The position numbers and the translations under genes were made by a program. From Bispira polyomma (lineage: Eukaryota), in assembly GCA_965649765.1 (NCBI GenBank), contig OZ287748.1:101370001-101434000 (forward strand): a DNA stretch of 64,000 nucleotides, written 5' to 3'. Under the pieces are notes generated by a model. It was given only the letters and a program-made list of their open reading frames with translations. It had not been told where the DNA came from and ran no database searches. Of the stretch, positions 1,883 through 64,000 are shown in pieces. Every line of letters begins with the position of its first letter. Within the stretch, counting starts at the first letter, position 1.

Positions 1883-1912
1883 TGCATTTCTGCAGTGGCC
1901 CCTTAGTTTTTT
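1877..1912 (-). promoter_or_regulatory. Putative -1 programmed ribosomal frameshift signal (A_AAA_AAC + hairpin)
   Basis: gcA AAA AAC TAA, then ccactgca-GAAA-tgcagtgg. The -1 frame reads open into ORF 1586-1882. Confidence 0.7.
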
Positions 1913-2955
1913 GCTGATTTTCTATTACAGTTGGTGGTTTTGTGAGCTCCACTACAGGTTTCACACACATGCTTAAAAGAAGTGTTGCCTGTTTTATGAC
2001 TACTGGGGTACTTACAAGACCCATCTTGAAAAAATTTGCAATTAGCTGTGCCCGACTTAGTAAAGGTTTGATTTTTCCCGACGCCCTTTGCAAGTGAACC
2101 CTGAGAGCTACCACTGCCAGAGCCATGCCTCTGCACATGTACCCGCCTAAGCCGGTCAATTTTGTCGACGTCGCTCCATTTAAGTTTGTCCATTTCCATG
2201 GTTGTAAGTACAACCACATGGCAGGCTTTGGCGGCCTCCCAGGAAAAATCCTGGGAGTCCTCCATCAGTCCAGCCATGTAGTCAAGCATGATCTCTTTGG
2301 TTTCGGGGGATTTCTCATCTTGTATTATATGTGTGAATCCGCAGACCCACTGGTTCCAAGTTAAGGCATCATAACACGGTCTAGCTTTAAAATTTCCGGA
2401 GAGGACATGATTTTGAGGCCATTCAACCACGCGCTTCACTATTACATCAACACCCCCCCCCCCCCTTTGAGACTTGATCTTACCTTTAACCGGGTTCTCG
2501 TTGAGGTGTGCGAGCTCGGCTAGCCTTAACTCGACTTGGTTCTGAATGCTACTGCTCTGTTTTAAAAACTGTACACTCGGGACAACAGTGTTCTCAATAC
2601 TTGTTATTTCCTCACTCGAGCTGGCAGAATTGTTACTGGAAGCAGTAGCCGCAGCCACGTGTGTTTTAGCAACGTTTGATACTGGAGTGGTTTCCGTTAT
2701 TTCCTCACTCGAGCTGGCAGAATTGTTACTGGAAGCAGTAGCCGCAGCCACGTGTGTTTTAGCCACGTTTGATGCTAGAGTTGTTTCCGTAACTGACACT
2801 CGCTGGTCAAGTTTTTCCATCAACTGGCCCATAGCCTGAAGTTGTGCTAATATTTGTCCCGAAACCACGGCCACACTATCAACGCCAACCGGACTAGGCT
2901 CAACAGTTTCCTCATCGGATACAGTCTCTTCCTTGATTGAATCTTTGGACAACAC
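1903..2955 (-). CDS. Ngaro gag-like ORF1 (copy 1)
   Basis: GKIKSQRGG..WPQNHVL..YDALTWNQWVCGF..LMEDSQDFSWEAAKACH and a C-terminal Cys/His finger; homologous to 35611-36681. Carries a 93-bp internal tandem duplication. The N-terminal Cys motif is partly deleted. Confidence 0.85.
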   Translation of the reverse strand: MLSKDSIKEETVSDEETVEPSPVGVDSVAVVSGQILAQLQAMGQLMEKLDQRVSVTETTLASNVAKTHVAAATASSNNSASSSEEITETTPVSNVAKTHVAAATASSNNSASSSEEITSIENTVVPSVQFLKQSSSIQNQVELRLAELAHLNENPVKGKIKSQRGGGGVDVIVKRVVEWPQNHVLSGNFKARPCYDALTWNQWVCGFTHIIQDEKSPETKEIMLDYMAGLMEDSQDFSWEAAKACHVVVLTTMEMDKLKWSDVDKIDRLRRVHVQRHGSGSGSSQGSLAKGVGKNQTFTKSGTANCKFFQDGSCKYPSSHKTGNTSFKHVCETCSGAHKTTNCNRKSAKN

Positions 2956-3232
2956 AACCTGGCATTTACTGCCTGACTTTAGGCATGGTAATGTGTAATG
3001 TTACAGTAATACACTGCACAATACATATAGGAAAGACTACAAACAGTACACTAAAACATAGAGACAAAATGTAAACATCCGCGTCCTTGTGTGTTTTGTA
3101 ATGTTACAGTAATATAAATCAATGTTAATACTAGATCAATGCTAATACTATATGAACGACACAATCAATATTAAAGCCAGTGTACTCAAATTTTGTAAAG
3201 GAATGTAAACAAGAATCCTTTATGATTTCCTC

Positions 3233-11464: not shown

Positions 11465-14400
11465 CTGTTAAGTACATAGAAACAAAACAAAAACATAGAG
11501 GAACAAAACATGAAATTTTGTACATATTGAATACATTTTTGTGTTTTAATGGGTCAATGTATAGGTGCATGTCTTAGTTATTATAATTACAGACCTATTT
11601 TGCTAGTTTTGTTGCGTGTGTAGGGGGCAGGGGGAGCATTGATAAAACCTGTGCAGTATTAATCAAATGTGACTTTGTCTTTCAAGCTTAGTAGAAAATT
11701 ATAACCAATCCAATAATTTAGACATTCAAGTAGTATGTTAAAATCATAAGGGTAAAAATGACCACCCCATTTCGATCTAAGGCCATTTCGATATATCTGC
11801 TGATTTTTAGTAGTGCTGTATCAGTACAATGGAATTTTCTATAGACTGATGTGGGGTTTAAACATATGGTTGATGGACATATGTTCATTTATTTGGAATG
11901 CAAAAGCTTTCTCAATCAACTTCAAGGCAAAGCTAAGGTGAGATACTAGAAAGATTTTGGAAAGCAGCCTTCTTGATGGGAATAATTTCTTATGTTTGTT
12001 GTTGGAGTAAGTAGAACATTAAGAAAAAATCCCGAGAAGTAGTGCAATGTGATGAAGTTATAGTCTTTAGGACTTCATCTTTTCCGAGGATGTTAAAATT
12101 ATCCAAAGTAGAGGGTTGGTATGGTGGAGCAAGTATGTTCTGAAGATTGGATGGTGTAAAAGCCATGCCAATATTATCAATCTTTATTAGTGAAAACTGT
12201 TGCAATCAGGTAGCACTGGGTCAGTAACTTTATGAAGGATTCTATTTACAGTCTACTATAATTTCTGTATTCTATAAAGAAACTCAGGCACAAACAAGAC
12301 ACAATTTGCATTGGAAACAAACTACGATGTTAACAGCTTTATCAATGGTGTTGTGCTTCAGAAGATGCCTGGCATCAATTAGGCGTGTTAAAATCTATCA
12401 TACAAGATCATCAAGAGAAATAGTGTACCACCTTGCAGATAGAAATAACCTATGCTTGTGACCATTCATTTTAGTGTTGAAATATTGGTGAAGTGATTCT
12501 GTTCTTGTACGCTAGAGGATGATTTGCATCAAAAAGGCACATTAAAAATGCAAATACAATACAATCAAATATGCAGTAAAATTTCATTTTTTTTCAGTTA
12601 AGCAAGAGAATGGAAGACCTTAGAGTTTTATTCTTTTTTGCTAGCAATATGTCTCACTTAAATCTGTAATGTAGAATCATAGTCCATTGACATAACCACA
12701 GTCGTAAGGAAGGTAGCGCCATACCCAGCTCTACCCATAACTCAAGATTAACTCAAGATTTGAACTTAAACCTAAATAACACTTTATCTGGGCTTTCCCT
12801 ACCATACATCATAGAGGTATTAACATATCTTTGTGAGTGTATGTCCTGTTACTGCACACCTTATCCAGGTGTAAATATTCCCACTTTTTTAACCTGATGT
12901 TGAGCTTGAAATTATATTTTGACAATATGGTGGATCATAATTATAAAAATTACACCTGGGTTATGGGTGTGATAAGAGGGCATAAATTCACACAAATACA
13001 TTCATGCCTGCTGGGTGTATGGTGGGGAAGGCCCAGATTAAGTATAATTCCTGGCGTCTGCGCCTTTTAGTGGAATCTGGGTGATTATCCTTACCCATCC
13101 ATTGGAAAATGCTGAACTCCATGTGTTTTACAGAATGGTCCTTCTGTGTAAAGTGTCTTGAGACAGGAGTGGATTTGTTTGGTAAGAAGTTTTGAACACT
13201 TCTGCAGTGTTCATACATTCTTTGCCTGAATGGTCTTTTTGTTTCCCCAATATATTGGAGACCACATTTTGCACAATTAATAATGTATATAACATTATTC
13301 AATTCACATGTGATTTTGTGTCTAGGTGGGAGGTTAACACATTTGAAGACTTTATTACTATTAAAACTGGTAATGTTTTCCAGTTTGTTAATTCTTGGAC
13401 AATAGGTGCACTTACCCAGTCTTGTACAGACTGGGATATGTGTCTGTAATTGCACTGTGTCCTGCTTAGGTGGAAAAAGGATATTGCTTGAAGTGAGCTT
13501 ATCCTTTAAATTAGGTAGTTTTCTGTATCCAATCAGTGGTTTTGAATTGAAGATTTGAGTCAATTCTTGGGTATTCTGGATGGTATTCCAGTTACCATTT
13601 ATAAGTTGGTTGATTTGGGGGTTGAAGGGGTTGACCTGGGTGACCATGACTGGGGTGTCCACTGGTGTCTTAGTGAGCACTGTGTCTAACAAATCATTCT
13701 GTGAAAATTTGCTGCCCTTTTTGTAATGTTTTTTGAGGTAATTGAGTGGATATCCTCTTTTTAGGTAATACCCTGTTAACTTGTAGGCATTGTCCTTAAA
13801 GTCGCTGTCTAGTGTACAGATTCTCCTAAGGCGCAAATACTGACCATATGGTCCCTTTTCAAGGACACTTTTAGGGTGGGCTGAGGTAAACTCCAGATAC
13901 AAATGTGTATCAGTGGGTTTGTTATAGAGAGTTGTGATGAGTTCTCTATTAGCTCCAAATTTGACCGTTGTGTCTAAGAAGTTAATGTGGTCATGGCTAT
14001 ATTCTTGTGTGAATTTAATGGTTTGGTGTAGTGAATTGAGATACTCAAAGAATTGAATGAGCGTTTGTTCACCATGTGTCCAGATCATAAAGATATCATC
14101 AATAAATCTTTTCCATACTAAGGGTTTTAATGAGTAACCATTTAGTGTCTTTGTCTCAAATCTGTCCATAAACATGTTTGAATAGTTGGGTGCTAAAGCT
14201 GTGCCCATAGCTGTCCCTGCTATCTGTAGGAAGTGGTCACCATTGAACTCAAAATTCATACTATGTAAAACCAATTTGAGGAGATCCAGTATGAATTTGG
14301 CTATGGGTGTTTTGGTTGTGTCCTTCCTTAGTTGTTCTGCTACAGCTAGTATTCCTTCCTGATTAGGAATATTGGTATACAGTGATGATACATCAAGAGT

Positions 14401-17400
14401 ACATAGGATTGCTCCTTGTGGGATAGGGCCCAAGTCTTTTATCTTTTTGATAAAGTCCTGAGTGTCTCTGATGTATGATTTAGTGGCTGGTACATATTTT
14501 TTGATATGTTCATCAACCAATTTACTAATTCTACTAGTAGGGTGGTTAACAGAACTACAGATTGGTCTACCAGGAACTCCTTTTTTATGTATTTTTGGGA
14601 GTAAGTAGAATCTACTTTCTGTGCAATTATCTGGGCTCAAGTGTTCTAAATTTTTGGCTGATATGAGGCCTTTTTGTCTCATCTGAATCAGGGTGTCTTT
14701 GACCTTTTGGCTAATGTCATTCGTGGTGTCATGGTCAAGTTGGGTGTAGAAGTTAGTATCACCTAATTGTCTATAACCCTCTCTGAGATAGTCAGTTGTG
14801 TTCATTACTACAACTGCTGAGCCTTTGTCCGCCTTTTTAATAACATATTTGGGTTATTACTAAGTTCTCTAAGGCCAGTCATTTGACCTTTAGTTAGGTT
14901 GGGGTTCTTTCTGCCTTTGATTTTACTTTTCAGTAATCCCAATTTAAAAGCTCTGTGGAAAACCTCTAGTGACTGATGTGTTCTAGGTGGTTTCCAACTA
15001 CTTTTATCTATGAATTTTTTGTGAATTTCCTTGTAGGGGTTTTCAGCTTCATCAAGGTTATTAGCCAAGAAGTCCACTAAGTCCATTTCACTTTGGTCTA
15101 AGTTACTGAGGAGGTCGTTATCTTGATAGAAATGGTATTTGAGGCAAAGTCTTCTGTGGAAGTCTTTGAAATCCAACCAAATTTGTGACTTATTAGGTTG
15201 GCCTGGGGTTGGGCAGAAGGTTAAACCTTTTTGTAATGCAGAGACTTGGTCACCACTCAGGGTCACATCTGATAGGTTTATAACAGTGTGTCCAATGAGG
15301 GTGTCCATAGTTTTGTCTTTGGGAAGAATCCCTGGAGGAGCAATTTTGGCTTCCTCCTTAATTCTAGTAAGGATGTCTTGATAGTTATTCCTTTCCATCA
15401 TTGACAATGTGGATATGGAATTGGATACTGAGGTCCAAAAGGGGCTACCGGTTGGCTCCCCTTTGTTGTCAAGGTGAGTATAATAACAATATACAAATTT
15501 AAATAAATTGTATTTTATTTATATACAAATCTTACATTAGAGTTGTATGTGTGATAAGGCAAAATAAATTTATTTATTTTTAATTAGTTTGCTGAGTCCA
15601 TTCAATAGGGACTGAATTTGTCTATCATTATTTTGGACATTTTTGCCCCTTTTCTGGTAGGGTGCAGGTTGTCTCCTGGGTTTCTTTGTTGGTGGGCCAG
15701 GGCGCCTTTCTGGTTTTCTCTGCTTGAGTACTTTGGTGGAGGCAGCTGTTTTGTACCTCTCATTCAGGGTGTCCTTGACTTCTTTGAATTGGGTGGGGTC
15801 AAGGATTGTCTCTAGTTGTGCCAGGACTGTTTGGATCTCGGATTTGGTTTCACAATATTTTCTGTTTAAGTCCTCAGAAAGTTGGTGTGTCAATTCTCTT
15901 CTGCATCGATTGACACACTCAACCCACTTTGTTTTGAAGACTTCATCAGTTGACACAGGTGGTGTGCATCTGAAAGCTGTCTGTGCAGGAAACTTTCCAA
16001 TCTTAAGGTTGTCCTTGATGAAGTGTATGTTAGTGGCAATACTTAACTTCTTTCTGTAAAAGTTTTTCCCTTTCAGATACAGAGGTTTTGCTTCAGGTGG
16101 GTACTTCTCTCTACTGAGGCTGGTTCGCTCAGATGAGGGTGACTCCATTGTCTTCCTCTTTTTATTTTTTGGTTTCTGGTTAGGTTCATTAAGTTTTTTT
16201 GAAACTTCTTCCAGCAGAGATATGGTCTCACTGCTCAGTTTGGTGACTGGAATTGGGGTGTCAGTAGCTGGAGTATTGAAAGCTGTGTGACTGTCCACTT
16301 CTAGGTGGTTGATAGCAGTGCTAAGGGCAGTATCACTCTCACTCATTTTGACCCAGTAAAATTAAGAAAGATATGATGTGTGTGAGAGAGAGGTGTATTT
16401 GTCTTCTCAGGGATATTGTTGGAGAAGACAAATACACCTCTCTCTCACACACATCATAGCTTTCTTAATATGGTGGATCACTATGAAATATTACACTGAC
16501 CTGCTCTTTAGTGTCCTCTTTATCCAGGTCATCATAAGGCACACCACACCAGTACTTCTCCTGCTGGTCCTCACTACAACACCAGCCAAACCTCTCCGCA
16601 AGGTTGATCACAGTCATAGGGTCTAAATCTTTAGGGTCCTGTCTACCTGTTTGGATGCATTTGAATTTAAATTTGCTTGTTAGAGGTATGGCAGTTACTG
16701 GTGATGGTTATGTGTACAGGTACTGTGTACAGTCCATAAAAGGGTCTCTTCAGGATTTTGTCTACATAGTTGTAGGGAACACATAACATCAGGAGCTAGA
16801 TTCACAAAATGTGTTAAATCTAAGACTAACATTGTGCTTATACCAGGCTTTAACTTTTGTCTTAGCTAAGGTTTGTCATAATTTTACCCTTTATAAAAAG
16901 ATTACTGGGCCTGTCATGTTTGATGTGTTTAGTCTGACAAGGACAAATATATAACTGTTTGAGGTTTAATGAAATAAGAGGCAAAAAAAAAACAATAATA
17001 ATCTCACAAAAATATGGTTATCAGTTATGAACTATAGACAAAATATAAGAAAGACTATACTGATACAGATCAAGACAAGTGTAGTCCTAAAGTGGTGATA
17101 TGGATGTGGATCAGGATACTGATGTGTTAGTACATTAACATTAGCATCAGCATATATTTTCATTTAAAAAGTATACATGAGGCCATTCTGAAAAACCAGG
17201 AGACGTCTCTAGTATGTATTTTAGTGACTTCTCTAACAATTTATCCAGAATTTCCTTTACTTGACAGCAATACTTGCAAAAACTTGCATAAAAGTTGAGT
17301 TCAAAACCTATTTCAAGCATATTTAAGAATTATACTCAATCTGTTTTTAGAAATACACAAATGAAACAATACAATTAACATGTGCAATACAATTAAAATG

Positions 17401-26400: not shown

Positions 26401-29400
26401 TTGATGTATAATCTACAAATTAATTATGAAATAAAATTCAATATTAAAGGTTTAAATCATAGAATCTTCCTTATTCGACTTTTAGTCCAGTCCATAATAA
26501 CATATTTTATCGGTTTTAGCATGGAATTATATCTTGCTTTAATACATCATGACCCATCTTCCAACCAAATGCAAACACAACAGTGATGGAGACATTTCAA
26601 ACCGACACTGCATTGTCCATGTTCCAGGTCTTCGGTACTCAGCTATGCAAAACTTCTCTGCTTGTAATGATTCTCAGAAAAGTTTGCAAAGTTGAAGGAA
26701 GTCAAAGCTCTTAGGTTAGGGCAACCTCTTACATCAAGCTACCACATGAAGGGTATTTGTGATCTGATTCCGGATAAAATTGATGAAACCCACGGCTTCC
26801 ACCGGGAATGCTACAAAAGATTCACTGGAAATATGGACAGACTAGAGACACTTGAAGGAACTTCACAAACAGAAGGAATAGTTGAAAGAGCAAAACGCAG
26901 TTCTAAAGAGAGCACTATCTTTAATCCAGACTGCATATTTTGTGGATCTAAGGAACCAAAAAAAGTAAAGGCCAGAGGAAGCTGGGCATGAGTGTCTTTG
27001 AATATGATGGATGGAAGTCGGTTCTTAAAATGGCTGAGAAAAAACAAGATGAAAAGCTTTTGACACGAATCCGAGGTCATGATCTTTTTGCCAGTGAAGC
27101 CAAGTTCCACAAGAATTGCCGAATGAGCAATATGCAGTGTTCTGAAAAATGGAGAAGTACTGATTCTAAAGCCCAACAAGAACAGCAGGAACTTAAGAAA
27201 GCACACCAGAAAGCATTTGATTTTGTCTGTCATCTTATTGAAAGTGAAGTTTTGGGTAAAGAAAAAATCCTAAAACTATCCGATTTAAGACAAAGTTATA
27301 TTTTATGCTTGGCAAAGACTGACTTTTCGAATCCCGATTATCGCAGCCACAAACTCAAACAAAGGCTTGAGCGTCATGTACCATTTCAAGGAAAACTGAT
27401 CACAGGAAAACCTTATCATTACCACACCATCAACGATTAATGCAATCTATTGGCCAAGATATTTACAGAGCTGCAACCAATGGATCCTGGAAACTTCCAA
27501 AACATAACATGATATGCATGTCATTCTGGCATTTGTTCCTAAGTGAAAAGACTGTAACACTCCTTAACCGACTGGGACACTGTGAGAGTTATTCTTTCTC
27601 TCTTGAACTTGAGACAGGAATAGCCTCCTCACTGCTGGAATCATCATCACATCTCTCGAAAAAGATAATCCCTTTCCCATCTAACCCATCAGTATTTCAT
27701 TCAGAATTTGACAATTTTGACTGCCTAATTAATGATCTGACTGAGAAAGGACCTGTTCACACTGCACATGGCATTATGTTGCAAGAACTCCAAGAAACCC
27801 AACCAGAGAAGAATACTCCAAATAATGTTGTTCTCAAAAGGACTAAACATAGGTCACTCAAACAGATAAAAAATTCCTCACTACCTGACTGCTATATCAC
27901 TAAAAGGAAAGGTCCAAAATTTGATATCCAGGTACTGTAGTATCCAGACAGCAAAGTTGCAAAGGAATTCTCCTTCAAGCATCAGTTACTCTGGATCATG
28001 GTGAGATTTCTCAATGAAAGTAACCAATGTATACCCACATGGTCAGGTTTCATATCTGAAACTGGAACACCACCAACCAGGCTTACAACATTGGATTACT
28101 ACCCTGTCACTAACCACCGACCCAGTTACTCAAGGTGAACTTAGCAAAACGGCACAGTTGCGGATCTCTTACATGGGACATGTTCGTCTCCTGCTGCAAC
28201 TTCTTGAAGCTGTTAAAACAAATAACTTTCTTCTCTACGCTGGAGTGATCTCTGACATGACACCACTGTTCTTTAGCTTTGATGGACAGAATTATGCCCG
28301 CTATTTGAGTTTCTTCTCAGTTTTCCTTGTCAACATTGACACTTCACACCCTGGAGCCATGGATCTAATCAAAAGTGGTGCAATCAGTGTTGCCAGATCA
28401 TTTGTGCCTGGAAGCCGCTGTGATGTTGACAAAACAATGGAAGAGACATTCATGAAACCTGCCAAGTCCCATGGCGGAGCTGGTACCTGTGGAACTGGAG
28501 CATCCGGTCTCCTCACCAACTATGAAGCTTACTAAAGATGGGTAATGACAACTCATGCACGTTCTCTTCTCCTGGAGTCTACTTTAAGTCTCGCAGGCAT
28601 GACAGTGTTGACAGAAAATCAAATGCATCGCTCCACCAGGCCATCTGAAAAAAGAAAAAGTAAAAACATGTTCAAAATGCCAAAGACGCTGTGTGCAATT
28701 TTCTTAATCCATTTGATGTTGATGCAAAAGATGAGCTTCTCATCTTGTCTTTAGGAGCTGCAGCATCTGCAGAAGTTGAAAGAGATGTCTTGAATGCTGA
28801 AACACTTGGTGAAAAAGCTAGGGATGTTTTCATTCAGTCCAGAATGAAAGGTGAAGAAGACTTCTTTAATCCTGTCAAACGGCTGAATCTAAAAACATTG
28901 GAACCATGAATAAAGTGGTAAAGTTACCTTTAAGGATAAACCATAAAGAAACAAGTTGTGCAGTTAAAGCAGCAAGGAAGTGTTGCATTCCAATTGTTGA
29001 TAAAATCTCATAACCTGGGACTTTATCTGGACTTGAAATAGTTAATGACCTATCAATTGACACCTGTCCCATGCAGCATTGCTACAGCAGATGGTTACCT
29101 TGTGAAGCGTGACAAAGCTAAAGGACTTCACCACATCACTAAGGATTTTAGCAACACCACATTGCCACCAATTGCTGAAACACTAACTGTGTTGGATGGA
29201 AATGCCTGCTTCTGTTTTTTGAAAGATCTGCATTCAAACTTCAGCCAAATCTGTTCAAAAGTGTTCGACCTACTGGGGAAGACAGGTGATGTAGTTTTTA
29301 GCACAGATCAGTATTTTCAAAATTCAATTAAATCTATGGAGCAACATGGCCGTGGCTGTGGTGAGAAACTGTTCTTGAAAGGTGAAGCAACAAAGAGGCC

Positions 29401-32400
29401 TGCTGACTGGAAATTATTTCTTGCAAATGAAGACAAGAAAGTTCAGTTTCATCCATTCGCTGCTGAAGTCCTGGAGCAGTGTCAAGTATGTATATTGTAT
29501 ACTAACATTCTTAAAACTCTTGGTGATGAATGGGACATTTCTGATGAATTGATTGCAGGACTTGAAGATTTCACCTGCAAACTGTATGGTAAAGCTTCAG
29601 CAGTCACAAATCTCAATGACCTTCGGCTGGTACGGATCAACCAGCTTTGTATGAAACACAATCGCATTATTCCCTCAAATAACATTGACATGGGGAAATT
29701 TCCACCCTGTAAGAGAGCACTGTTACAGCACATAAGAAGAGTGAACCATCAAGTGGGTGACTGGAAGAGAGCACACATTCCAATGCCCAGCATTCCCATG
29801 GCATCTCTTGATCACGGATGGAAGGTAGAAAATGGTATCCTCCAGCCTATCTGGTATGAAGGTGAAATTCTCCCATTAGAACTTGTGAATACATGTATCA
29901 CTCAGGATTGTCAAAAAAGTGAAGGTATTACGGCAGATTTGGAAGACTCTGATCCCTTTATTGATTCCGACAGTGAATTTGAAACAACACCAGAAGACTA
30001 TTCAAGTGATAGTGATTCAGACTGAGTTCCGGATAAGTGGGAAACTTTGTATGTGTCACTTAAATAAATGAATTTTTTTTTGTTCATTTCCACTTTCAAA
30101 TTATGTTGTTTTATTGTAGAATTGAAAATAGTAGACTTGAAAGATCTACATGTAATAACACTACATGGTTCACATTTTAACTTGTTTCGGTACCTGTTCT
30201 CATATCACCTGTGAAATGGTCAACAGTTTTATTAAAATATGTCCTACAGAAATAATTTTTGAATTAACATCAGATGAAAAATTGTATTTTCAGAAAATAA
30301 AAGCATTTGTGCCTATTTTAGAAAAGGTTTTATGCTAATGTATATATGAAGTTTTAAATTTTCTAAGGGTAGCGTGTTTAATCAAATATATCTTTTCAAT
30401 AAAAACAGCTATACGAATATTTTAAGAAGCTGTTGATTCTACATGCAAATATATTTTATTTGATGTATAATATACCTCATTTGCTTAAAAATGATGATTT
30501 TTTGAGGCTTTTTGTTGTGAGCAAAATTACTGGATATCAATATCGAAGGTTTTTACTCAGCAGGTATTGGTCAATTGAAGTGTCTATTCATCATAGTGAA
30601 TCCCAGTATTTTTTTCTGTTACTAGTTGTTTTGTTGTATTTGTTTTTTTCTACACAGCCTAAGCTTTTCAATGATACCAATTTTATAAAGTTGTGAGGGG
30701 GGGGGGGGGGGGGTGCGCCTAGGGCCTACATGTTTAAGGAGCAGATTTGTCTATGGGGAAATAAGATAATGACAGGCAACAAATTTTAAATGAACAGTAG
30801 GACTATGATATTTGACATTAGAGGTACACAAAAAGAAAACATTTCTTGCAGAACATATGTCAAAACACTGTTATTCAGATATTAGTAAATGAGAACTGGG
30901 AGTTCTTTATCTGGTATTTTTAGTTTAACATCACTTTACACAAGTGCATATTATATTGCAATGGGCTTTTTATTGGTGTTGGGAAAGTAGTATTGATCAG
31001 GTAGTTGATCACAGTTTTCCACAATGCAAATAACACAGATTTCTGACATACATGCTGTTGCGAAAAATTAAGCCGAGACGGTCACCCAAAACTACCGAGG
31101 TCCCAGGGATTAGGGACAGAAAAAATGCAGTGTATCCACACTTATTCCATGTACAAGTTATGCATGGCAGAAATTTGGTGTAAATTATAACAGCATTGAC
31201 TTACCACAATAAGTACCACTAGCAGACCTGCAAACATGATAAATCCTTGTAAAAAGTCAGTCCACACTACAGCTTTGATACCTCCCTGTGTGTCAGAAAA
31301 AAGGTCACAGAGTACACATAATGTGTGTGTATTTCTATATATACTCATCGCATTCACTTTCTCTTTACTCGGTATTTAAAAGAAATTTAAGGAAATGTAA
31401 ATTAACAATTAATAAGTAGCAAACACTACCATATAACACACAGCAGACACCCACACACAATACAAACCCCTTGTTTATATTACTTTATTACTTACCAGTG
31501 TGGTGTATATTACAGCCACTACTCCAGTACACACAATAGAAGCCCACACAGGGAAACCTGTCACTGCCTCTAACGCTGTGGATGGGGCGAACATGGCTAG
31601 ACCCATGTAGAGGCACTAGGTGAAGGAAATATGACATGAACACACACACAGAGCCATTTTGCTGACTCATTACATATATTATATGATTGATTTTCAATGT
31701 GCCTAATTTATGTCAGGCATCTTCTAAAACGCAACATGATTGACAAAGTCGTTAAAATCATAAAGTCTATTTTCAAAGGAAATTCGTGATCGGGTGTAAT
31801 AGAGGTGGGGAAGAAAGATTGGTCTTAAGGTAACTTCTAAAGCCAGAGAGGGTTTCCTGAGATTGTATATAGGTTGGTAAATTAGTCCATAGTGTGTGTG
31901 CCGCAACAGAGAAGGCATAGGATCCAATACATTTACTAGTCCTCATATCAGAGTCTGAAATTCTGTTTCCCCTGGTAAGCCTGCTGAAAGATAAAAATTA
32001 GACAAGATATGGGGTGAGATAGGTTTACAGCTTTGTATGTTCTATCACTGGTCTTGAAAATGATGCAGTACTGGACATTTGAGAAATATACCCTAAATGT
32101 AGGAGATAAAACTAAATATTTGAATAATTCACAAAATAGTAACGGTTGAATGATCATTATATAATTGTTTAATCTGTGTGTTTAAGGAGCACAAAACTTT
32201 CATATTGCAATTTATTTCTATATAAGAAAAAATTATGTTAACAATTTCATCTAGATAAGTATATACTGTTGATATGTGACTAGTAATTAAGTTGTAAACT
32301 TACAGAATTTAGAATTCCCATGATTACTGCCGTCATAGTGAGAACAGGTGACTTGTACCTCCTGTCGTGGTACTAGAAAAATATAGTTCAGATAATCAAA

Positions 32401-35379: not shown

Positions 35380-35382
35380 CTG

Positions 35383-35535
35383 TGTAAGCGAACGCCCTCA
35401 GCGTTCGTGGCCTCAGTTCTGGGGTACCAGCCTGTTCTACTATTATGGGATGGTGTACGACTATATAAGGCTCTCCTTTTTCAAATTCTCCCGCCTTTAT
35501 CGTTTCGTCAGCAGAGCAACAACTAGTTTAAAATT
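35383..35535 (+). repeat. Ngaro repeat A1 (TATA-like ctatataag at 35461)
   Basis: Identical by eye to 40582-40734. Confidence 0.95.
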
Positions 35536-35610
35536 TGTTTGGGTGACATTTTGTTTATGGTGTTTACGGTTTTATAATTTATAATATTTTAGTTGAAACA
35601 CCATCTAGTC

Positions 35611-36681
35611 ATGCCTGTCTTTGATTGTAGCCAATGTTTAACCAAACATGAGCGTCCTGTCGGGCGAAATTGCGTTAATGAGAAAATTGTTGACTCTGTC
35701 TCTGGGGAGGAGATCGATGCTGCCTCAGACACTGAACCTGCAAACGGTGAGTCCGGCGATGCAGTTACCAATGCTATACTACTTCAACTGCACTCGATGA
35801 ACGAATTAATGGTGAAAATGGACCAGCGGGTTCAGAGGAATGAGGCAGCATTGGCGACGAACCTTACCAGTAGTCAGGCAAGTCATCAGGTCCCCGTTCA
35901 GGCAAGTAGTAGTTTGATTAGTTCTAGTGTTGTCAGGCCTGCTAGTTGCTCTGCTGACGTAGGTAAGAGCCCATCTATCGCTACGTCCGACAGTATAATT
36001 CCTGGCATAGATTTTTTAAACCAGAATGCCCTAATACAGCTCCAAGTGGAGCAGAGATTGAAAGATCTCAAAACGTTGAATGAGACCACCGCGCAAGGTA
36101 AACTGAAGTCCCAGCGTAGTGGGGCGAATGAGGTATTGGTAAAGAAGGTCACCGCCTGGCCTCAAAATTATGTGCTGACGGGTAGTTCTAAGTCTCGGCC
36201 AAGCTACGATGAGTTAACCGTGTTGCAATGGGTGTGTGGTTTCGCTCGGATCGCCCAAGAGGAGAAGTCGATCAAAGTGAAGAATGCCATGCTGGATTAC
36301 ATGGGGGGTCTTATGGAGGATGCCCAGGATTTTTCTTGGGAGTCAGCTAAGGCCTGCCATGCAGTCGTATTGACAAGTATGGAGATGGATAAGTTAGGTT
36401 GGCTAGAGGTAGATAAGATGGATTGAATCCGAAGAGCCCATGCTCAGCGCCATGTGTCGAACAGTAGAAATTCCTCTGGGGGGAATGGACGGCTAGGTAA
36501 CTCTAGTAGCAGTAAATCTGGCAGTCGTAAAGGTGCAATGTTTTGTCGCTTTTATCAGGAAGGAAATTGTAGATTTCCCAGCTCTCACAATACTGGAGGT
36601 CAGTTATATAAACATCGTTGTGAGACATGTGAGGGTAGCCACAAGACTAGTGAATGTCATAAGAAAGGGGCAAAAAACTAA
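35611..36681 (+). CDS. Ngaro gag-like ORF1 (premature TGA at 36424)
   Basis: MPVFDCSQCLTKHERPVGRNC N-terminal finger and C-terminal Cys/His finger. The stop replaces the Arg present in copy 1 (CGA>TGA). Confidence 0.88.
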
Positions 36682-36707
36682 GAGGCCACTGCGTTGATGC
36701 AGTGGCT
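36672..36707 (+). promoter_or_regulatory. Putative -1 programmed ribosomal frameshift signal
   Basis: gcA AAA AAC TAA, short spacer, gccactgc-gttgat-gcagtggc hairpin. The -1 frame is continuous with ORF 36702-38366. Confidence 0.72.
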
Positions 36708-39099
36708 AAAAGGGGTGAGCAAAAAAGTAGGTTTGTCTATAATATTAAATTTAAGGATATACAATTATTTGAGAGGTCTGTGTGTCAGAAAATGTGTAAA
36801 TATGTGAAGGGCACCAGACCAGGCTTGAGCTATAGCCAGGCGTTGCAAGAGACTGGCCCAGTTCAAAAGTATGGGTGTGTAAATAGAAGTGTTGATAATG
36901 TACAGGTAAAACAGGCAAGGTTTGACAAGAGTAAGGTGACGATAGTACATAACAAAAGTGACACCTTGGTGAGGCCCCTTGGTACCTCTGTGAGCCAATT
37001 GACACCCATTGTGAAGCCTGACACGTGTGCGAAACAAGACAAGGGGATAACAAAGGAGGTCAATTGTTCGAGATTGAATAGGGGCGAAGAGAGGCGGGTC
37101 AATGGGGGTGTGGCTGTCCTCCCTCTTGCTAACAGGTATACAGCTCTAATGTTGCTGCCGGTCGATGACAGTGAAAATGTTGACGAGCCCGTTCGATTCC
37201 TTTCTGTTACTAGTGACAAGCCCGTTAACCGAGGCAAGGCGAGGAGTAAAACTGCTTCCGAAGACCGCCCGGGAAGTTCCGAATGTTCCGATATATACGC
37301 TCGTGCTTTGAAACAGAAAGGAAATAAGAAAGGCATGTTAGCTAAGGCTGCCTCAAATCCTACTTACAGAAAATGGCAAGCTCAAAGTCAATATGCATAT
37401 GGATTCACTCCTCTCTCTGCTCTGGGCTGTGAGATTGCAGATCATGGTGGGGGAGGGCCCGAACTTTCCATATTGGAAATGCATGACTTAATTCGGGCTG
37501 ATGGGAGACACAATTATGAAGGGTTGCAAATCCCTGTTCCCTCTCAATTAAGACCAGAGAGTTGGAAAAAATACCTTAAAAATTACTGGGATTGGCAATT
37601 GCCTCTCCTCATAAAGTATGGATTCCCCCTAGACGTGGATCATTCAGTTCAACTGGAATCCAGTGAGATTAACCATAAATCGGCTGAGGAATATCCACAG
37701 CATGTAGAAGCTTATATGCAAGAAGAATGTGAGTTAGGAGCCATGTTGGGGCCATTTGACAAACCTCCCATTCCGGGCTTGCATTGTTCTCCCCTTATGA
37801 CGAGACACAAACCGAATTCAATTAACCGGAGAGTAATTGTAGACTTAAGTTGGCCTCAAGGGGGGTCGGTTAATGCGGGAGCATCTCCTTCCTCTTGCTT
37901 GGGTGTTGAATTTTTGCTGTCTTACCCATCTATTGATAATCTCACTAGTGAGGTGGTAAAATTGGGTAGAGGATGCGAGATATTCAAGGTCGACATAAGT
38001 AGGGCGTTCCGTCACGTACCCATTGACCCTGGCGACGTTGACCTCCTAGGTCTAAAGTGGAAGTCCTATTATGTGGACAGATCTCTGCCGTTCGGATATC
38101 GTAATGGTAGCACGATTTTTCAGAGAATTTCGGATGGCGTGCGTTTCATAATGCACTCTGAAAATCATAATGTCCACAACTATATCGACGATTTCTTGGA
38201 TTTCTGTTCCCAGCAAAATTCAAAAAACTTACCTGAGATTGCAAAAACTGCTACAAGAATTGGGGTTGACAGTAAGTCAGAAAAAATTGGTTCCTCCCAG
38301 CACACAGGTTGTCTGCTTGGGCATAGTGGTGGATACCATTCGTGGTACTACTTCCATCCCGGTTGAGAAGTTAAGTGAAATTAAATATAAGTGTCAGGAA
38401 TGGAAATCCAAAAAATTCTGCACTAAGAGGGAGCTCCAGTCTTTACTTGGCTTGTTATTGTATATTTCTAAATGTGTGAAGTATGCTCGTGTCTTTTTGA
38501 ATAGGATGCTGGAACTGTTAAGAGATAATTACACCAGAAAGTATATTACCATCAACCCTGAATTCAGGCGTGACTTAAATTGGTTTACTACTTTTGCAGA
38601 ACAGTTTAATGGAGTCTCTTTCTTTATGCCTAAGCCCATAACTGGTGAGATTGAATTAGATGCCTGCCTTACTGGAATGGGGGGTATTTTTGAGAAACAA
38701 GTGTACCAAATTAACATTCCTCCAGAAATGAGTGAGGTCAATATTGCTTCTTTGGAGATGCTTAACATCCTGGTAGCTTTAAAATTGTGGGTTCATAAAT
38801 GGAAAGGTCGTAGAATATTGGCCAGATGTGATAATCAGGCAGTTGTAAGTGTCTTACAGACAGGGCGCACCAGAGATCCGGACTTAGCCACGTATTCTAG
38901 GAATATATACATGTTAGCTAGCAAGTTTAATATTGATATTGTTGTCATACATATTTTGGGTAAAGAAAATAAAATTGCAGATCTGCTGTCAAGATGGACT
39001 GAAACTGAAGCCAACCATTTGTTGTTATTTAGGTTAGCTGGGCCTGTCCAGTGGCTGCCTGCTTGCCACAGTTTATTAAAAGTTAACTCACTTATATAG
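36702..39099 (+). CDS. Ngaro pol: RT + RNase H (frameshift near 38200)
   Basis: KVDISRAFRHVP, LPFGYRNG, YIDDFL, ELQSLLG.L, LDACLTGMGG, IASLEMLN, CDNQAVV, HILGKENKIADLLSR. Confidence 0.92.
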
Positions 39100-39133
39100 C
39101 ACGTGTTAGTCATGTTTTCCAGATATACAACCT

Positions 39134-40109
39134 GTGGCCATCTCCTTGATGCAGAAAGCTTGTGACAGACTTGAACTTGCCTTCACCCCTGCCACTAACA
39201 GAGCCTACAACAGAATGTTCAGGCTGTTCTTGGCGTTTGGAGCCTTTATGTCATGGCCTCTTAAAAAGGTGACTGTGTTATATCTCATAGCATATTTAGA
39301 GTTTTTAACGTTTAATGGTGTGTCGGCGAGTCAAGTTCTTAATCATCTTTCTGCCATTAAGGCAAAGTGTGTCCTCTTCCATATATCTGTAGACGCTTTT
39401 TCTGATAAAAGAATCACCTATTATAATAGAGCTTTGGCAATGCATAGACCATTGCAAGTAAAACTTAAGTCAATTTTCGACGTCCAGTTGTTGAGGTCTC
39501 TTATTATAAAGTGTGACAGCACTTACATGGGTCAAATTTTTAAAGCAGTTTATCTCACCAGTTTCTTTTCCTTTCTGAGGCTGTCTAACCTCTGTGCTCA
39601 TTCGGTTGCTGCTTACTCTCCTCTTAAGCAGCTTGCAAGGGCTGATGTCCTTTTCAAGCCAGGGTATGCTGTCCTCATTGTTAAATGGTCTAAAACCCTT
39701 CAGAACAATAATGCCGTTCGTTTGCTCACCATACCAGCTTTAACCAATTCCATTTTATGTCCGGTTCAAGCTTTAAAAAACATACTGTCTATTTCTCCCA
39801 AAGGGGAAAGATTTGCCCTTGTTTCGATTTAAGCAGAATGCCATTTCGACTCCCCTCACTGATACTAGGGTTCGCAGGCATCTTAAGAATGTCTTACTAA
39901 TGCTGGGCCCGCAGTACTCTGGCTTGACCTTTCACGCCTTCAGGCGTTCAGGTGCCACGTTTGCCTTTAACAATAATGTCACCATTCAGGACATCCAAAG
40001 GCAAGGCACCTGGACGTCCGATTGCGTCTGGCGTTACATTTCGGATTCTGCCAATGCTGGTACTCAAGTTGCCGATTCCTTCAAAACTATTCTACAAGAT
40101 ACGCACTAG
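39134..40109 (+). CDS. Tyrosine recombinase (frameshift near 39808)
   Basis: Catalytic R (FLRLSNL), K (KWSKT), CPV, HxxR (FHAFRRSGAT), GTW..D..WRY. Confidence 0.92.
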
Positions 40110-40120
40110 AATTTTTGGGT

Positions 40121-40734
40121 TTGGTGGCATGACTGTAACATCTAGTCAGTTTAACATTGCAAGTAGCATATTAATTACCTGTAAACTAAATGAATTAACT
40201 GTGGGCATAAGGTCCCCCGGTATTATTAAAGTACATATTGTACTCATGTAATTAAAGTTGCACTTAAACCCTAAGTCAAACTTTAATTTGTTAATCTTCA
40301 AAGTCATATTTAAGTTTCAACTTAAATCAAATTTTCTAAATTCAACTTCTTTATTAGTTAGGGTTACTTAAACTCATTCTGGTTTAACCTAAAGTCCTAA
40401 ACTCAGTTGAGTTAAGGGGACCTTATGCTCACACAAAGTGTATATCATGTCAAAGAACTGTACATAAATATCTTAGTAATAGTAGCTGTAAATATGAAAT
40501 AAAATATATTTAACCGCAGTATTGTCTTTCTATGACTGGTTCGGTTAATTGAGTTTCCTCAGGCACTACTCCGAGGAAGTGTGTAAGCGAACGCCCTCAG
40601 CGTTCGTGGCCTCAGTTCTGGGGTACCAGCCTGTTCTACTATTATGGGATGGTGTACGACTATATAAGGCTCTCCTTTTTCAAATTCTCCCGCCTTTATC
40701 GTTTCGTCAGCAGAGCAACAACTAGTTTAAAATT
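40121..40734 (+). repeat. Ngaro B1-A2 internal junction
   Basis: ...ccgaggaa-gtg-tgtaagcg... Confidence 0.95.
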
Positions 40735-41473
40735 CCCACCCTCCACTTACCCCTTTTAGTTGGAATGTTGCTACTATTGGTACGGATATATTAGTATGGA
40801 TGTCTTAACAAATGTTGCATATATTGTTGTTAAATGCTACTGTGGTTAGCTATGTATTTTCAGACAAATGGGAGTCAGAATAACTTTGTCAAATGCCTCA
40901 CTGCCTTGTTGGAGTCCACCACTGGGACCTGCCGTTTGTATGTGACATCAAGGGATTGTGTCATCAGAGTGTAGAACAGTCTGGCAGACTAGTGTCTGGG
41001 CCGGTGTAATATGTCAGTGGTGGACTCTGCGTAAAATATTATAATTTACATTATCTACATTTTACTTAAAAGTTTACCTTCTTTTATACAAGTTTACATT
41101 ACATGTGTCAATTCATTGGATAAGGGGTCGTATTATTCGATCACGTAAGGGCGTTGCGGTTTGAGCTAGATGTAATGTAGCATAAAATGGGCTAAACGTA
41201 TATATAAGTTTCTTTTAGTAATCATAATGTGGTACTTACCTGGGGCTTTATACATTATTGTTTATAAAGTTATTGGGCAGGATGAAGTTTACATTGGTTT
41301 TAAATTCCTCAATCATAGTGCATGAACTATTTTATAACATTTTACATCTTTTACAAATTATTGATTGTAACTTTTGTTATTAATATTTTAAATATCAGTC
41401 GCAACTGAGTTGCTACTGGGGTTCTGATGTACTATGGTTGCGGTTCTGTGATATGCATGATAGAGTATGCGGG

Positions 41474-41931
41474 TTGGTGGCATGACTGTAACATCTAGTC
41501 AGTTTAACATTGCAAGTAGCATATTAATTACCTGTAAACTAAATGAATTAACTGTGGGCATAAGGTCCCCCGGTATTATTAAAGTACATATTGTACTCAT
41601 GTAATTAAAGTTGCACTTAAACCCTAAGTCAAACTTTAATTTGTTAATCTTCAAAGTCATATTTAAGTTTCAACTTAAATCAAATTTTCTAAATTCAACT
41701 TCTTTATTAGTTAGGGTTACTTAAACTCATTCTGGTTTAACCTAAAGTCCTAAACTCAGTTGAGTTAAGGGGACCTTATGCTCACACAAAGTGTATATCA
41801 TGTCAAAGAACTGTACATAAATATCTTAATAATAGTAGCTGTAAATATGAAATAAAATATATTTAACCGCAGTATTGTCTTTCTATGACTGGTTCGGTTA
41901 ATTGAGTTTCCTCAGGCACTACTCCGAGGAA
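41474..41931 (+). repeat. Ngaro repeat B2
   Basis: Near-identical to 40121-40578. Confidence 0.95.
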
Positions 41932-44790
41932 CTGCTGTATAGTATTCTTAATGTCTATGTACATCCCTGGCCAAAAGATCCGATCCCTAGCTTTTCTGGT
42001 ACATGCCTCTAACCAGAGATGACTACTGTGTACTTTCTCATGTTGTGGGGAATTACGACCTTTTGCCCTTTGTGTAGAATAACATTTTGCACACCAATTT
42101 CCTCTCTAAACGTCCAGTATTCCTGAATGTTTTCTGGAAGCCGGGTCTTTCCTAAAGGCCATCCATCCAGCACTATTTCCTTTAGGGTCTGAATGGAGTC
42201 ATCTTGTTGTGTTTCTGTCTGGACTCTGTTTAAGGTTGCTTCTGTAAAGTAACTGTGTTCTGTTGGCCTCATTTCTTTAAGACTTGTATAAAATACAACA
42301 TAGTGCTGGTCCTTAGTTTCACCCTGATTGCTCAGCAGTTTAATTCGTGACAGAAGGTCTGCAATATACATTGAAGCTCCCGCCTTGTGACATACTTGTA
42401 ACTGGTATTTCGGCAACCTTAGTAGCATTCTTTGGAGTCGTTTTGGAGCACGAAGGATGTTTTTCTTTAAGACAATTTCTAATAGCTTGTGATCTGATTC
42501 CACCTTAACATTGTCTCGGCACAAGAGATACTGATGGATTTTGTCACAGGCGAAACATAAAGCAAGGCATTATTTTTCTATGACTGCATAGTTTTGTTCT
42601 GTTGGAGTTAGTGCCCTTGCTGTAAATGATATTGGCTGTCCCTGCTGCAATAATGTTGCACTGAGACCTTTGTCTGAGGTGTCACATTATATGGTCACTG
42701 GTAAACTTGCACCATAGTATCTGAGTATTGGTTGCATTGTGACAAGACGTTTGCATTCCTGGAAAGCCTTTTCCTGCTGATTTTTCCAATACCATCTCGC
42801 CTCCCTTTTTGTCAGACGTCTCAATGGTTCACACATATCTGATAGGTGAGGTAGGAACTTTGCTAGCTAGTTTATAAATCCAGTGAATCTCTGCACCTCT
42901 TTAACGCAAGTTGGTCTCGGCATGTCCACAATGGCCGTAACATTTTCCGGGTCTGCTTTCACGCCGTCTGAAGACAAAATGTGACCTACATACTTCACCT
43001 CATTCAGCCTAAGTTTTGCCTTTTTTCTGTTTAGTTTGAGATTTATTTTGCAACATTTTTCTCAAAGTTGCCTTAGGTTTTGGTCATGAGTTTCTGTTTC
43101 CCTTATTGTGTCCCCAGACCCACACACAAGGATGTCATCTGCAATAATTTTGATGCCTTCTAGACCTTCCAGAGCTTCCTATTGGCGCTTCATGTATTCT
43201 TGAGGTGCTACATTAATACCAAATGACATTCTCAGTCATCTATATCAGCCAAATGGCGTCCAAAAGGTAGTTAGGTAGCTACTCTCTTCATCCAATTCAA
43301 TTTGATGAAATCCATCTTTGGCATCTATTACTGAGAACACTTTGGCTTTTGCTAAGCTTGGCATGATTTCTTCAATTGTGGGCAAGGGATATTGGTTTCT
43401 TTTGAGAGCTTTATTTAAGTCTTTTGAACAAATACAGATTCGCAGTTTTCCTGGTTTCTGTACTGCCACCATTGAGGAAATCCATTCTGTGGGAGTGTTC
43501 ACTCGTTGAGGTATTCCAGATATTTCCATAGTCATAATCTTTGCCCTAAGTTCTTCTTTTGTTGCTATGGGCACCTTTTGTGGGGTGTGCTGTACAGGTT
43601 GAACGGTTTTGTCCACTTCCAAATGTAGTTTGTCAGGAAGGCTCCCCAGGCCTTCAAATACATCCTTATATTCATCCAGTAATTGTTCTATGTCAGCTGC
43701 TTCTTTGTTGAAGTTTACATTTGCTTGACTACTCTGTCCATATTTTGGCTTATCCTTAGCTTCGTTCTGCTTTGTATTGTGTATTGTTATTAGTCCTAGC
43801 TTCTGACATGTCTTTGCACTCAAAAGTGGCCGTCTGTGACTCTATTTGTCACTATCTCAAACCTTAATTTCTGTGTCTGTTTTCCATGACTTGCATACAT
43901 ACTAAATACTCCTAGGGGTTTCATGTATGATCCATCATAGAAGTTCAATTTGATATTGCTCTGTCGGAGCTGTGCATTGGGTACTAACTTGTTGAGATCC
44001 TCTATTGACATAATGTTACAAGTAGTTCCTGTATCCATCAAGCACACCACAGACTCTGGTTTACCACCTTTATTTTTAGTAAACATCAGTTCAATCATTG
44101 GCTGTTTACCCCCAGACTTTACATTTGCCAATGTGTGTTCAAAAGAAAAGCATGCGTTGTCAGTTGAGTATTCCTCTTTTACATACTGTGTCACATTTGG
44201 TGCACATTTTGGAAAACATTTTCTTTTCTTGCATTTTCTGCTTCCGGCCCAGTGGTTCATCTGGTGACAGGTTCTGCATTCTGTGCTGTATGCTGGACAA
44301 TTATCTGCCCAAAATCATGAACTTGTAGACAAAAGATAGTTTATTTTGTTGGTTTTGATCTACTTTTCTTCAGCTTTTCTTTCTTGGTAAACTGCACTGA
44401 TTCTTCTGTATGTTCTTGTTCTATTTGGTGTATCTAATGACCTGCGATCTCACGTTCTCGTAGTTGGTCAACAGCGCCATGAATGTCCACAGCCTTCTCC
44501 CTGAACATTCGGGCTCTGGCTGCTTTAACTCGTGCCCCTAACACAATCCTATCCCTCAATAGGCAGTCCTTTAGAGCACCAAAGTTGCATGAACTTGTGG
44601 GTTGTCTAAGTTTGGTGACCTACTGATCAACTGTTTCATATGGCCCTTGGCCGCAGTTGTAAAACATATACCTTTCATAAATTTCATTGTGCTTCGGCTT
44701 GAAATAGTTTTCTAATTCTTTCAAGCACTTTGTTGGATCTTTTTGGTCCTCATTAGATATTTCCAGATTTTGGAATGCTCTTAAGCATAA
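41932..44790 (-). mobile_element. Decayed Gypsy LTR retrotransposon gag-protease-RT-RNase H
   Basis: gag (YERYMFY..LRDRIVLG), protease (MDTGTTCNIM), RT (DAKDGFHQIELDEESSYLTTFWTPFG, IADDILV), RNase H (ESDHKLLE..APKRLQRMLLRL); many stops. Confidence 0.9.
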
Positions 44791-62065: not shown

Positions 62066-64000
62066 TCTTTAATAAGTTATACAATATGACTTAAACAATT
62101 ATAATCTATAACTTAAAGGTCACCTTAAACCAACTTTGAGTTTAAATTGTAACTTAACTTGAGTATGAAGAATTGGTTAAAGTTTACAGTTTAAGTTTAC
62201 TGGTGCTCTTAACTAAGATTTAAGAGCTCACCTTAACAGTACTTTAAGGTTGCCCTAACCTAAGGGCAGTAAGGTTACCTTAACCTTTTTGTTTTAGGTG
62301 ACCCTAATCTGAAGGGGCCTTTATGAATTTTGAAAAGAGTTTTAGTTAAGTTGACCTAAACTTGCAACGTATACAACGTATTGTCAATCTGAGTTAGTTC
62401 TATAGAAGTTGCTAACCAGACTGGATTTTCTACTAATGAATTCAATTCTTGGACATTATTTCATGAATTTTTCCATCGTGACAACAGGTCAGCGATTCTG
62501 TTGTCTTTACCCATTACGTGTATGTATTAGACATCAATATCTGCTGTGGCTGCCATATACCAAATGTTTCGAGCACACGCTGATAGATATGGGTCTCTTG
62601 CCCTACCAGATTTCAATACACTCACGACTGCTTGGTTATCACATTTGATGAGGACCTTAGTACCTTTCCAGTAATTTTTATATAACTTTAAGGCTACCAC
62701 TATGTTGATCATTTCAAGGTGAACAATTCCAAGACTTTCGAAATTTAGTGAAATAGGGAGGTGGTAAACCAGATGTCTCCATCTACCACCTAGACCATGC
62801 AGGCAAGCATCTAGCTCAAGTGTTTGATCAATGACCTTATGTCCATACATGGACACCCCATTGTACAAAGGTAGAAACCGGTCAAACCATCTGAGGTCGC
62901 GTTTGAAATCTTCTGTAATCATTAATCTATTTAGGTTTGCAATGCCCCTAAGCAGTTCCAACATTCGATTTAAGAAAAACCTTGCCGGCTTTACACACTT
63001 ATGGATATAAAGTAGCTGACCCAGTAATGATTGTAACTGTCTTTTGGTGCAATGGGTTTTGTTTTGCCACTGGCCTACTGTGGTTCTAATATGTTTTAAT
63101 TTTTCGTCCGGTATGGAAACCGTGCCCTGAACTGTGTCAATGAGTATACCCAGACACACCGCTTTTGTGGATGGAGCCACTAATTTTTTCTGACTTATAG
63201 TAAGTCCTAATTTCTCCATTGTGTCATACAAATATTCAAACAACCTTTTTTGCTGACGTGGGCATACCGTACCCTAAAAAATAGTCGATGTAGTTAATGA
63301 CGCTGTGTCCACGTTGACGCATGACGTAATGCACTGCTTCACTGACACGTTGAAAAAACTTGCTTCTGTGCCTACTGCCAAACGGGAGGCATGTATCTAT
63401 ATATGTACCTTTCCAATTTAATCTTAACAGGTCATAATCCATAGGATCTATTTTTAAGTGTCGAAATGCACGGCTCACGTCCAACTTGTAAATATGGGCA
63501 CCTTTACCTAACTTGGTTAATTCCTTTATTAAGTCGTCAATAGTAGAAAAGCTAAGATTGAAATCACCGCCTAAATAGCTGTCTTTCTCCACTTCTACAT
63601 TTACTGAATTACCTTTTGGCCAACTCAAGTCTATAATGACATGCCTATTGTCTGAATTTGGTTTGTTTCTGGTCATAAATGGGGAGTGGTGACCATTCTC
63701 AATAGGATTTTTTATGAATGGGCCTATTATGGCCCCGTGCCGCTTTTCTTCCTCTAAATAGACCTCCACATCTTTGGGGTATTCAATGGCAGATTTGTGA
63801 TTGTCAACATCACACCTGAGTTGACACTTTCTGTTAAAGCCTAAAGGGAGCCCGAACTCAATTAATTCAAGTAACTGTTGGTCCCAGTAATCACTTAACA
63901 TGGACTTCCATTGTTTTGTGTTTAATTGTGACACTACTGGAATACGAGACCCCATAAAATTAGGCTTACCCCTTTTCTTTACCTCGTGGTGTAATTGAAT
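62066..64000 (-). mobile_element. DIRS/Ngaro copy 3 (RT + RNase H, YR missing; runs off the window end)
   Basis: 63236-63955 RT (KLDVSRAFRHL, LPFG) and 62527-63243 RNase H (LDACLHGLGG, CDNQAVV) followed directly by an AT-rich B-like tract. Confidence 0.88.

Follow-up and report, generated by a model that had tools for sequence, protein, structure and literature searches.

A probable −1 ribosomal frameshift signal between gag and pol in a Ngaro-like tyrosine-recombinase retrotransposon, with readthrough-type junctions in sister families

Judged by its sequence features, the site described here joins gag to pol in a Ngaro-like tyrosine-recombinase retrotransposon, and we consider it very probable that a −1 ribosomal frameshift at this site makes the Gag-Pol protein. 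The window (the whole stretch of 64,000 nucleotides that was analyzed) holds the heptamer A_AAA_AAC in the gag register at 36672-36678 on the plus strand, the gag-frame reading at 36670-36681 being GCA AAA AAC TAA, exactly as the preliminary description of this DNA had it. Together with a hairpin 6 nt downstream, the in-register heptamer would cause a minority of ribosomes to slip by −1 just before the gag stop, and this slip would yield a Gag-RT-RNase H fusion. The slip, its rate and an output of Gag in excess of Pol are what we would expect from the features that the comparison of sequences documents directly, namely the heptamer, its spacing, the predicted stem, the −1 frame, the conservation of this arrangement and its absence from families with an in-frame pol.

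The element extends on the plus strand from about 35380 to 41932 and consists of A1, gag, RT/RNase H, the tyrosine recombinase (YR), B1, A2, a 740-nt spacer and B2:

35380-35535, plus strand: split direct repeat A1, 5′ end of the element; 1 mismatch to A2 over 157 nt
35611-36681, plus strand: gag-like ORF1, interrupted in this copy by a premature stop (36424-36426); most sister copies have an open frame of 362 aa
36544-36657, plus strand: C-terminal pair of Cys/His zinc-finger motifs in Gag; Cys/His columns invariant in 23 Gags, sub-threshold Pfam zf-CCCH match
36672-36678, plus strand: slippery heptamer A_AAA_AAC in the gag register
36679-36684, plus strand: gag stop TAA and spacer (TAAGAG), 6 nt to the stem; among families the stop is TAA, TGA or TAG and the length is kept
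36684-36707, plus strand: predicted stimulatory-type hairpin, 8-bp stem GCCACTGC/GCAGTGGC with G-U extension, from folding and family comparison
36678-39099, plus strand: pol with RT and RNase H, lying in −1; earliest in-frame ATG at 36792, frame broken near 38200
39123-40109, plus strand: YR ORF with His-x-x-Arg and distal Tyr; frame break near 39803
40121-40578, plus strand: split direct repeat B1, from repeat comparison
40579-40734, plus strand: split direct repeat A2, from repeat comparison
41474-41932, plus strand: split direct repeat B2, 3′ end, from repeat comparison

The Ngaro assignment was made by features, the RT tree used below holding only elements found in this study and no named reference Ngaro. 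The gag, RT/RNase H and YR genes lie in that order on one strand and are framed by split direct repeats (A1-ORFs-B1-A2-(740 nt)-B2) with 0 inverted repeats, a repeat order that we take to be that of Ngaro. No methyltransferase was detected at E≤0.1, pol ending 33 residues past the RNase H-type match, and the YR carries HAFR and a distal Tyr within 39804-40109. A sister YR has 359 relatives, several of which match PF00589. For the criteria we relied on the available text of PMC3266345 (methyltransferase), PMC8547959 (His-x-x-Arg and Tyr of the YR) and PMC9210276 (split direct repeats). In the accessible portions of PMC3783388, PMC8547959, PMC9210276, PMC7192593 and PMC3266345, Ngaro elements share with those studied here the gene order, the split direct repeats and the lack of a methyltransferase, and overlapping frames are noted for Xenopus Ngaro; the elements studied here differ in having no hydrolase ORF. 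The copy in the window is dead and cannot make the Gag-Pol fusion, being broken at 36424-36426, near 38200 and near 39803. Its A2-B2 spacer (40735-41473, 740 nt) has no frame longer than 51 codons. The start of the YR (39123-39320) gave 219 first-look candidates against 81 for the 5′ half of gag (35900-36097), an excess which suggests that many copies lack the 5′ part.

According to the available text of Firth and Brierley (2012, PMC3542737), a −1 frameshift signal comprises a heptamer X_XXY_YYZ, a spacer of 5-9 nt and a stem-loop or pseudoknot, GGA being tolerated as XXX. In the window, the arms GCCACTGC (36685-36692) and GCAGTGGC (36699-36706) enclose the loop GTTGAT, with an extra pair G36684-U36707. 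This agrees with the 8-bp GC-rich stem 5-6 nt downstream of the heptamer that was noticed at the outset. Also as proposed then, a −1 slip opens directly into pol: from 36663 onward the −1 frame runs for 567 codons without a stop and includes the RT. The predicted folding energies are −17.3 kcal/mol for the window hairpin and −16.2 kcal/mol for that of a second, divergent copy (copy 1), each with a z-score of −4.24 and with 0 of 200 shuffled sequences as stable. Both strands of the window together contain 664 heptamers of the X_XXY_YYZ type, and only the sites in these two copies are followed by such a stem (perfect 8 bp, at least 5 G/C, 4-9 nt after the heptamer). Genome-wide, a degenerate motif of heptamer, stop and 5′ arm had 599 exact matches, compared to 0 for the reversed control. 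The equivalent arrangement in copy 1, initially placed at 1877-1912, was recovered on the minus strand (1912-1877), where the pol frame is broken and open for 106 codons. A third, more distant element reaches the end of the window:

1876-1912, minus strand: copy 1 cassette with A_AAA_AAC, TAA and stem; another family, Gag identity about 56-59%
1903-3000, minus strand: copy 1 gag frame; donor AAG/GTAAGA with last exon base 2484
62527-64000, minus strand: pol of the third element; its junction, outside the window (L061), has A_AAA_AAC and then an unrelated 14-bp hairpin

Conservation of the stem was examined in 18 close junctions, in which 91.7% of the cells are paired and the loop varies freely. 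In the test by covariation that had been suggested, pairing is kept, but covariation is weak because only 3 of the 10 pairs are changed on both sides and 4 are invariant, and at least 3 doubly changed pairs also arose in 146 of 500 shuffles. The stem sequence in addition codes for conserved residues. A stronger argument than stem covariation comes from distant families, in which sequence-unrelated structures are predicted at equal distance, 4-8 nt past the heptamer. They include the 14-bp hairpin of L061, a 12-bp hairpin in L171 (z −4.9), a long stem behind the heptamer at the G_GAA_AAC loci L088, L095, L155 and L156, and, 8 nt past A_AAA_AAC in L087 and L100, two interleaved helices that may be modeled as an H-type pseudoknot. 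As a separate observation, the cassette is damaged in 15 of 52 copies (three families). In 8 of these the damage consists of deletions or a duplication that end in the hairpin (L020, L036, L041, L043, L045, L049, L052, L062), as if the stem interfered with copying.

The stretch between the slip site and the first ATG bears on whether the −1 frame is read from the slip site onward. Across this stretch 494 codons of the −1 frame contain 0 stops, the two other frames 11 and 63; identity at the three codon positions is 0.57/0.63/0.40, the third position being the least conserved, and invariant Tyr, Phe and Leu columns are encoded by synonymous codons. Because of the stop-free −1 frame, the poorly conserved third positions and the synonymous codons, these codons are by every sign translated and appear to be under constraint at the protein level. 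A motif related to the encoded peptide comes straight after the stop in the UGA-C families, whose labels were set partly from stop context. The initial claim that pol has no 5′ ATG holds for the first 38 codons, but an in-frame ATG follows at 36792, and 11 of 13 close sister families retain a Met between codons 36 and 42. Pol could be made separately from this ATG by reinitiation or internal initiation, the hairpin then serving packaging or another RNA role. The RT starts about 200 codons beyond 36792, so that such an enzyme would be whole. We nevertheless regard this explanation as very unlikely, since the codons ahead of the ATG are stop-free and conserved as protein, since the first ATG of other families lies anywhere from codon 10 to codon 256, and since the link between heptamer and frame would be left unexplained.

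A slip by the ribosome is also favored by the details of the heptamer. The wobble base ahead of AAA AAC is A in all 18 of the −1 families with an A-run heptamer (background frequency of A, 26%), while the residue is Ala, Ser, Thr or Leu. Polymerase slippage could add an A to the A6 run and so create an in-frame Gag-Pol mRNA; genomic copies with longer or shorter A runs (L019, L035, L038-L040) indicate that the run is slip-prone in some copying step. This scenario seems extremely unlikely to us. The G_GAA_AAC families have four A only, six A are a short run for polymerase slippage, and slippage of tRNAs would account for a Z base fixed as C/U and for a structure at the distance typical of ribosomal frameshifting. 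For Gag proteins in public databases the comparison is at the protein level only: Lys-Asn occurs in 73 of 126 usable tails (from 146 representatives) against 35.6 ± 4.3 by shuffling, with S, A, P or T just before it in 62 of the 73, and in 12 of 13 close compared to 3 of 27 distant Gags. A first search for Gag homologues found none, and viral contigs likewise yielded nothing.

To define how gag and pol are joined across families, loci were gathered through gag and recombinase searches in which the motif was not used. Of the 184 loci with a Gag match obtained in this way, 168 had the last zinc-finger Cys as an anchor and 16 lacked it. At 88% identity the 168 form 51 families, each represented by the copy with the longest open frame; two had no usable copy, and the other 49 were classed by the frame that continues past the gag stop. 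Pol is in −1 in 23 families, in frame 0 in 18 and in +1 in one, and 7 were too broken for classing. Of the 23 −1 families, 21 carry a heptamer in register, compared to 0 of the 18 in-frame families (Fisher p = 9e-10, the families not being independent); it is A_AAA_AAC in 16, A_AAA_AAT in 2 and G_GAA_AAC in 3 families. With this contrast, the Gag-RT-RNase H fusion by frameshifting that had been suggested beforehand is strongly favored. Five of the 49 families are metagenome contigs of other origin: three are in −1 and all have the heptamer (L168, L171, L173), and two are in frame. Heptamer and 3′ structure are thus kept across families and in the three metagenome contigs rather than being lost in relatives, and to this extent the idea of a conserved Ngaro cassette stands. 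It does not extend to all families, as −1 frameshifting is not the rule throughout the Ngaro-like families: in 18 of 49, a single stop separates gag from a pol in the same frame.

The in-frame families carry different signals. A leaky-type stop is found in 17 of the 18 (UAG-G in 10, UGA-C in 7) compared to 2 of the 23 −1 families, and 14 of the 18, compared to 0 of the 23, have CAR-YYA in frame no more than 5 codons away. After this single stop in a leaky context the frame stays open for up to 1095 codons. These sister lineages thus likely reach a Gag-Pol fusion by readthrough of the stop codon (UAG-G or UGA-CAG-CCA). The available text of PMC3542737 describes type I (tobamovirus UAG_CAR_YYA) and type III (gammaretrovirus UAG-G) readthrough. 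The in-frame families resemble these in carrying UGA-CAG-CCA or UAG-G; they differ in that CAR-YYA lies 9-12 nt off the stop in the UAG-G clade and in that no common structure was found. No RNA structure is shared within the readthrough class, and for the UAG-G type there were 0 consensus pairs over 100 nt in 12 families. UAG-G was also considered as a splice site and rejected, the pyrimidine tract being absent and no GT constant. In an RT tree of 47 rows (2 families omitted for short RT), with class labels set partly from stop context whereas the above tallies use frame-only classes, the frameshift label has to change 4 times, each change being required by well-supported branches, and the UAG-G families form one clade. 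The tree is midpoint-rooted, hence it gives no order of events, but it points to at least four switches between frameshift and readthrough. In the copies L004 and L062 gag and pol form a single frame, of 1105 and 1221 codons, respectively, as the result of a deletion.

Several loci deviate from the pattern. L081 (with L214-L219) has A_AAA_AAT and pol in −1 but no predicted stem (z +0.8), L068 has G_AAA_AAC, and L188 has no heptamer. In the L099 family (L099, L204-L213; G000:C8:64.05 Mb), pol is in +1 after GTT TAA in 8 of 9 anchored copies, with the first Met 62 codons in. Neither a heptamer nor another recognizable signal was found at this junction, and a phase-1 TAG 8 nt past the stop scores poorly as an acceptor (−4.7). 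L099 is a real +1 family and would represent a fourth route.

The recombinase appears to be expressed in another way, by means of two predicted splice sites:

36095-36103, plus strand: predicted 5′ splice donor AAG/GTAAAC, last exon base 36097, phase 1
39108-39123, plus strand: putative 3′ splice acceptor ...GTTTTCCAG/A, in phase 1 of the YR frame, the intron ending at 39122

In 37 of the 38 families scored (11 were left out), the best donor-like site falls on the same gag Gly codon, in phase 1. The first YAG past the pol stop is in phase 1 of the YR frame at 43 of 50 junctions (51 were examined, one being without YAG; the window acceptor is the second YAG, at 39122), and T occupies −5 and −6 in 29 of 29 selected acceptors. 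A GT donor and a T-rich YAG acceptor of matching phase are thus in place. In contrast, the frame of the YR relative to pol is 0, +1 or −1 at 13, 9 and 29 of the 51 junctions, respectively. Because the phases of donor and acceptor are fixed while the YR frame is free, the recombinase is likely made from spliced RNA as a Gag-YR fusion; a second frameshift into the YR was rejected since the YR frame relative to pol varies. Removal of the 3.0-kb intron (36098-39122) would join the first 162 gag codons to the YR in frame. No spliced DNA copies were found on comparing the best 40 of 81 gag-donor places with the best 40 of 219 YR-start places. Three sequencing runs of unspecified type, compared as contigs, showed neither 36097-39123 nor 36097-36703 among the 14 joints listed, a result that weighs neither for nor against splicing. 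Annotated Gag-YR fusion proteins were likewise absent among 120 listed of the 359 YR relatives; with lengths of 242-353, the listed proteins look like unspliced ORF calls.

The same gag donor, which already seems to be used for the YR, could also reach pol in frame, because the 3′ arm of the stem contains a CAG (G at 36702) in phase 1 of pol that is invariant at 18 of 18 junctions. With AAC-TRA as branch point, splicing to this CAG would give an in-frame Gag-N-Pol. We consider such a route to Pol unlikely. With a matrix built from 29 YR acceptors, the window CAG scores −2.9, which is background-like, whereas the YR acceptors have a median of 7.0 and a minimum of −2.0 (leave-one-out). The best pol candidates have a median of −5.7, only 6 of 42 reach −2.0, and 5 of 47 families have no candidate. 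Moreover, the CAG is buried in the predicted −17 kcal/mol stem, and the frame of a spliced pol should be free as for the YR, yet it tracks the heptamer or the leaky stop. No common phase-1 acceptor lies deeper in pol in 13 long-open copies; TTT-CAG-GA at pol codon ~28 was rejected as an acceptor, since it occurs in only 5 of 13 families and is in phase 0. A spliced pol mRNA, which would have spoken against frameshifting, thus has no conserved, well-scoring acceptor into pol, and the −1 slip is preferred.

Retroviruses make a recoded Gag-Pol from full-length RNA and express a third gene from spliced RNA. The elements studied here are alike in the predicted use of recoding for the enzyme and of one large intron for the third ORF; they differ in that this third ORF encodes the recombinase that carries out integration, for which a fusion with the N-terminal half of Gag is predicted. 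On balance we favor the view that Ngaro-like elements of animals run the full retrovirus-style plan, in which Gag-Pol recoding would have switched repeatedly among −1, UAG and UGA within one genome and a Gag-recombinase would arise from an RNA that has lost the zinc-finger and pol sequences by splicing. The recombinase would then be accompanied by the N-terminal half of Gag, which may determine packaging or the choice of target. As part of the same, moderately favored reading, this plan would be one not previously described for YR elements.

Compared to gag-pol frameshifting in retroviruses and LTR elements (available text of PMC3542737), the junction is alike in its in-register heptamer, 6-nt spacer, stem-loop or pseudoknot and start-less −1 pol, and G_GAA_AAC is a listed tolerated variant. 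It differs in that the signal, here a predicted one, sits in a YR retrotransposon without protease or DDE integrase and in that the gag stop lies inside the spacer. A known mechanism, −1 frameshifting, is thereby very probably extended to a class of elements for which it had been no more than a conjecture. The preliminary description regarded the mechanism as not characterized for DIRS/Ngaro elements; no description of the signal was found, but a frameshift had already been called probable. According to the available part of PMC13003380, which quotes Poulter and Butler 2015, the Ngaro YR is translated probably by a programmed (−1) frameshift at the ORF overlap. In the families studied here, in contrast, the YR may lie in any frame and it is the predicted splice signals that are fixed, which would correct the published guess for these families. 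Heptamer, stimulator, readthrough and splicing are unnamed in the accessible portions of the Ngaro accounts PMC3783388, PMC8547959, PMC9210276, PMC7192593 and PMC3266345, and the signal is undescribed in those of PMC3783388, PMC6681497, PMC9341512, PMC554778, PMC6238403 and bioRxiv 2022.06.16.496473. Our full-text literature search found no gag-pol heptamer, readthrough or gag-YR splice described in Ngaro/DIRS; Poulter and Butler 2015, Goodwin and Poulter 2004 and Gao et al. 2003 may cover the gag-pol overlap. What is added here is the family-wide contrast with readthrough relatives and the predicted spliced recombinase. Reviews had left the expression of the start-less pol and recombinase ORFs of YR retrotransposons as a guess, and exact, testable signals are now available for both. 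Dozens of naturally occurring cassettes for frameshifting or readthrough, with several switches between the two types, are at hand for work on the origin of recoding signals. For annotation, in-frame stops and −1 offsets at the gag-pol junction are not signs of decay.

Some other features of the window were noticed as well. In copy 1 gag, 2596-2765 on the minus strand is an in-frame tandem duplication of ~25 codons in the Ser/Ala-rich N-terminal half. At 12988-16361 (minus strand) an RT is followed by a GIY-YIG-like endonuclease, with a basic ORF upstream, which we take to be a Penelope-like element. Broken frames at 42009-44314 (minus strand) encode a zinc knuckle, a protease-like domain, an RT and an RNase H-like domain and are presumably Ty3/gypsy-like remains. 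A series of broken frames at 26952-30025 on the plus strand belongs to a gene that is probably transposon-derived.
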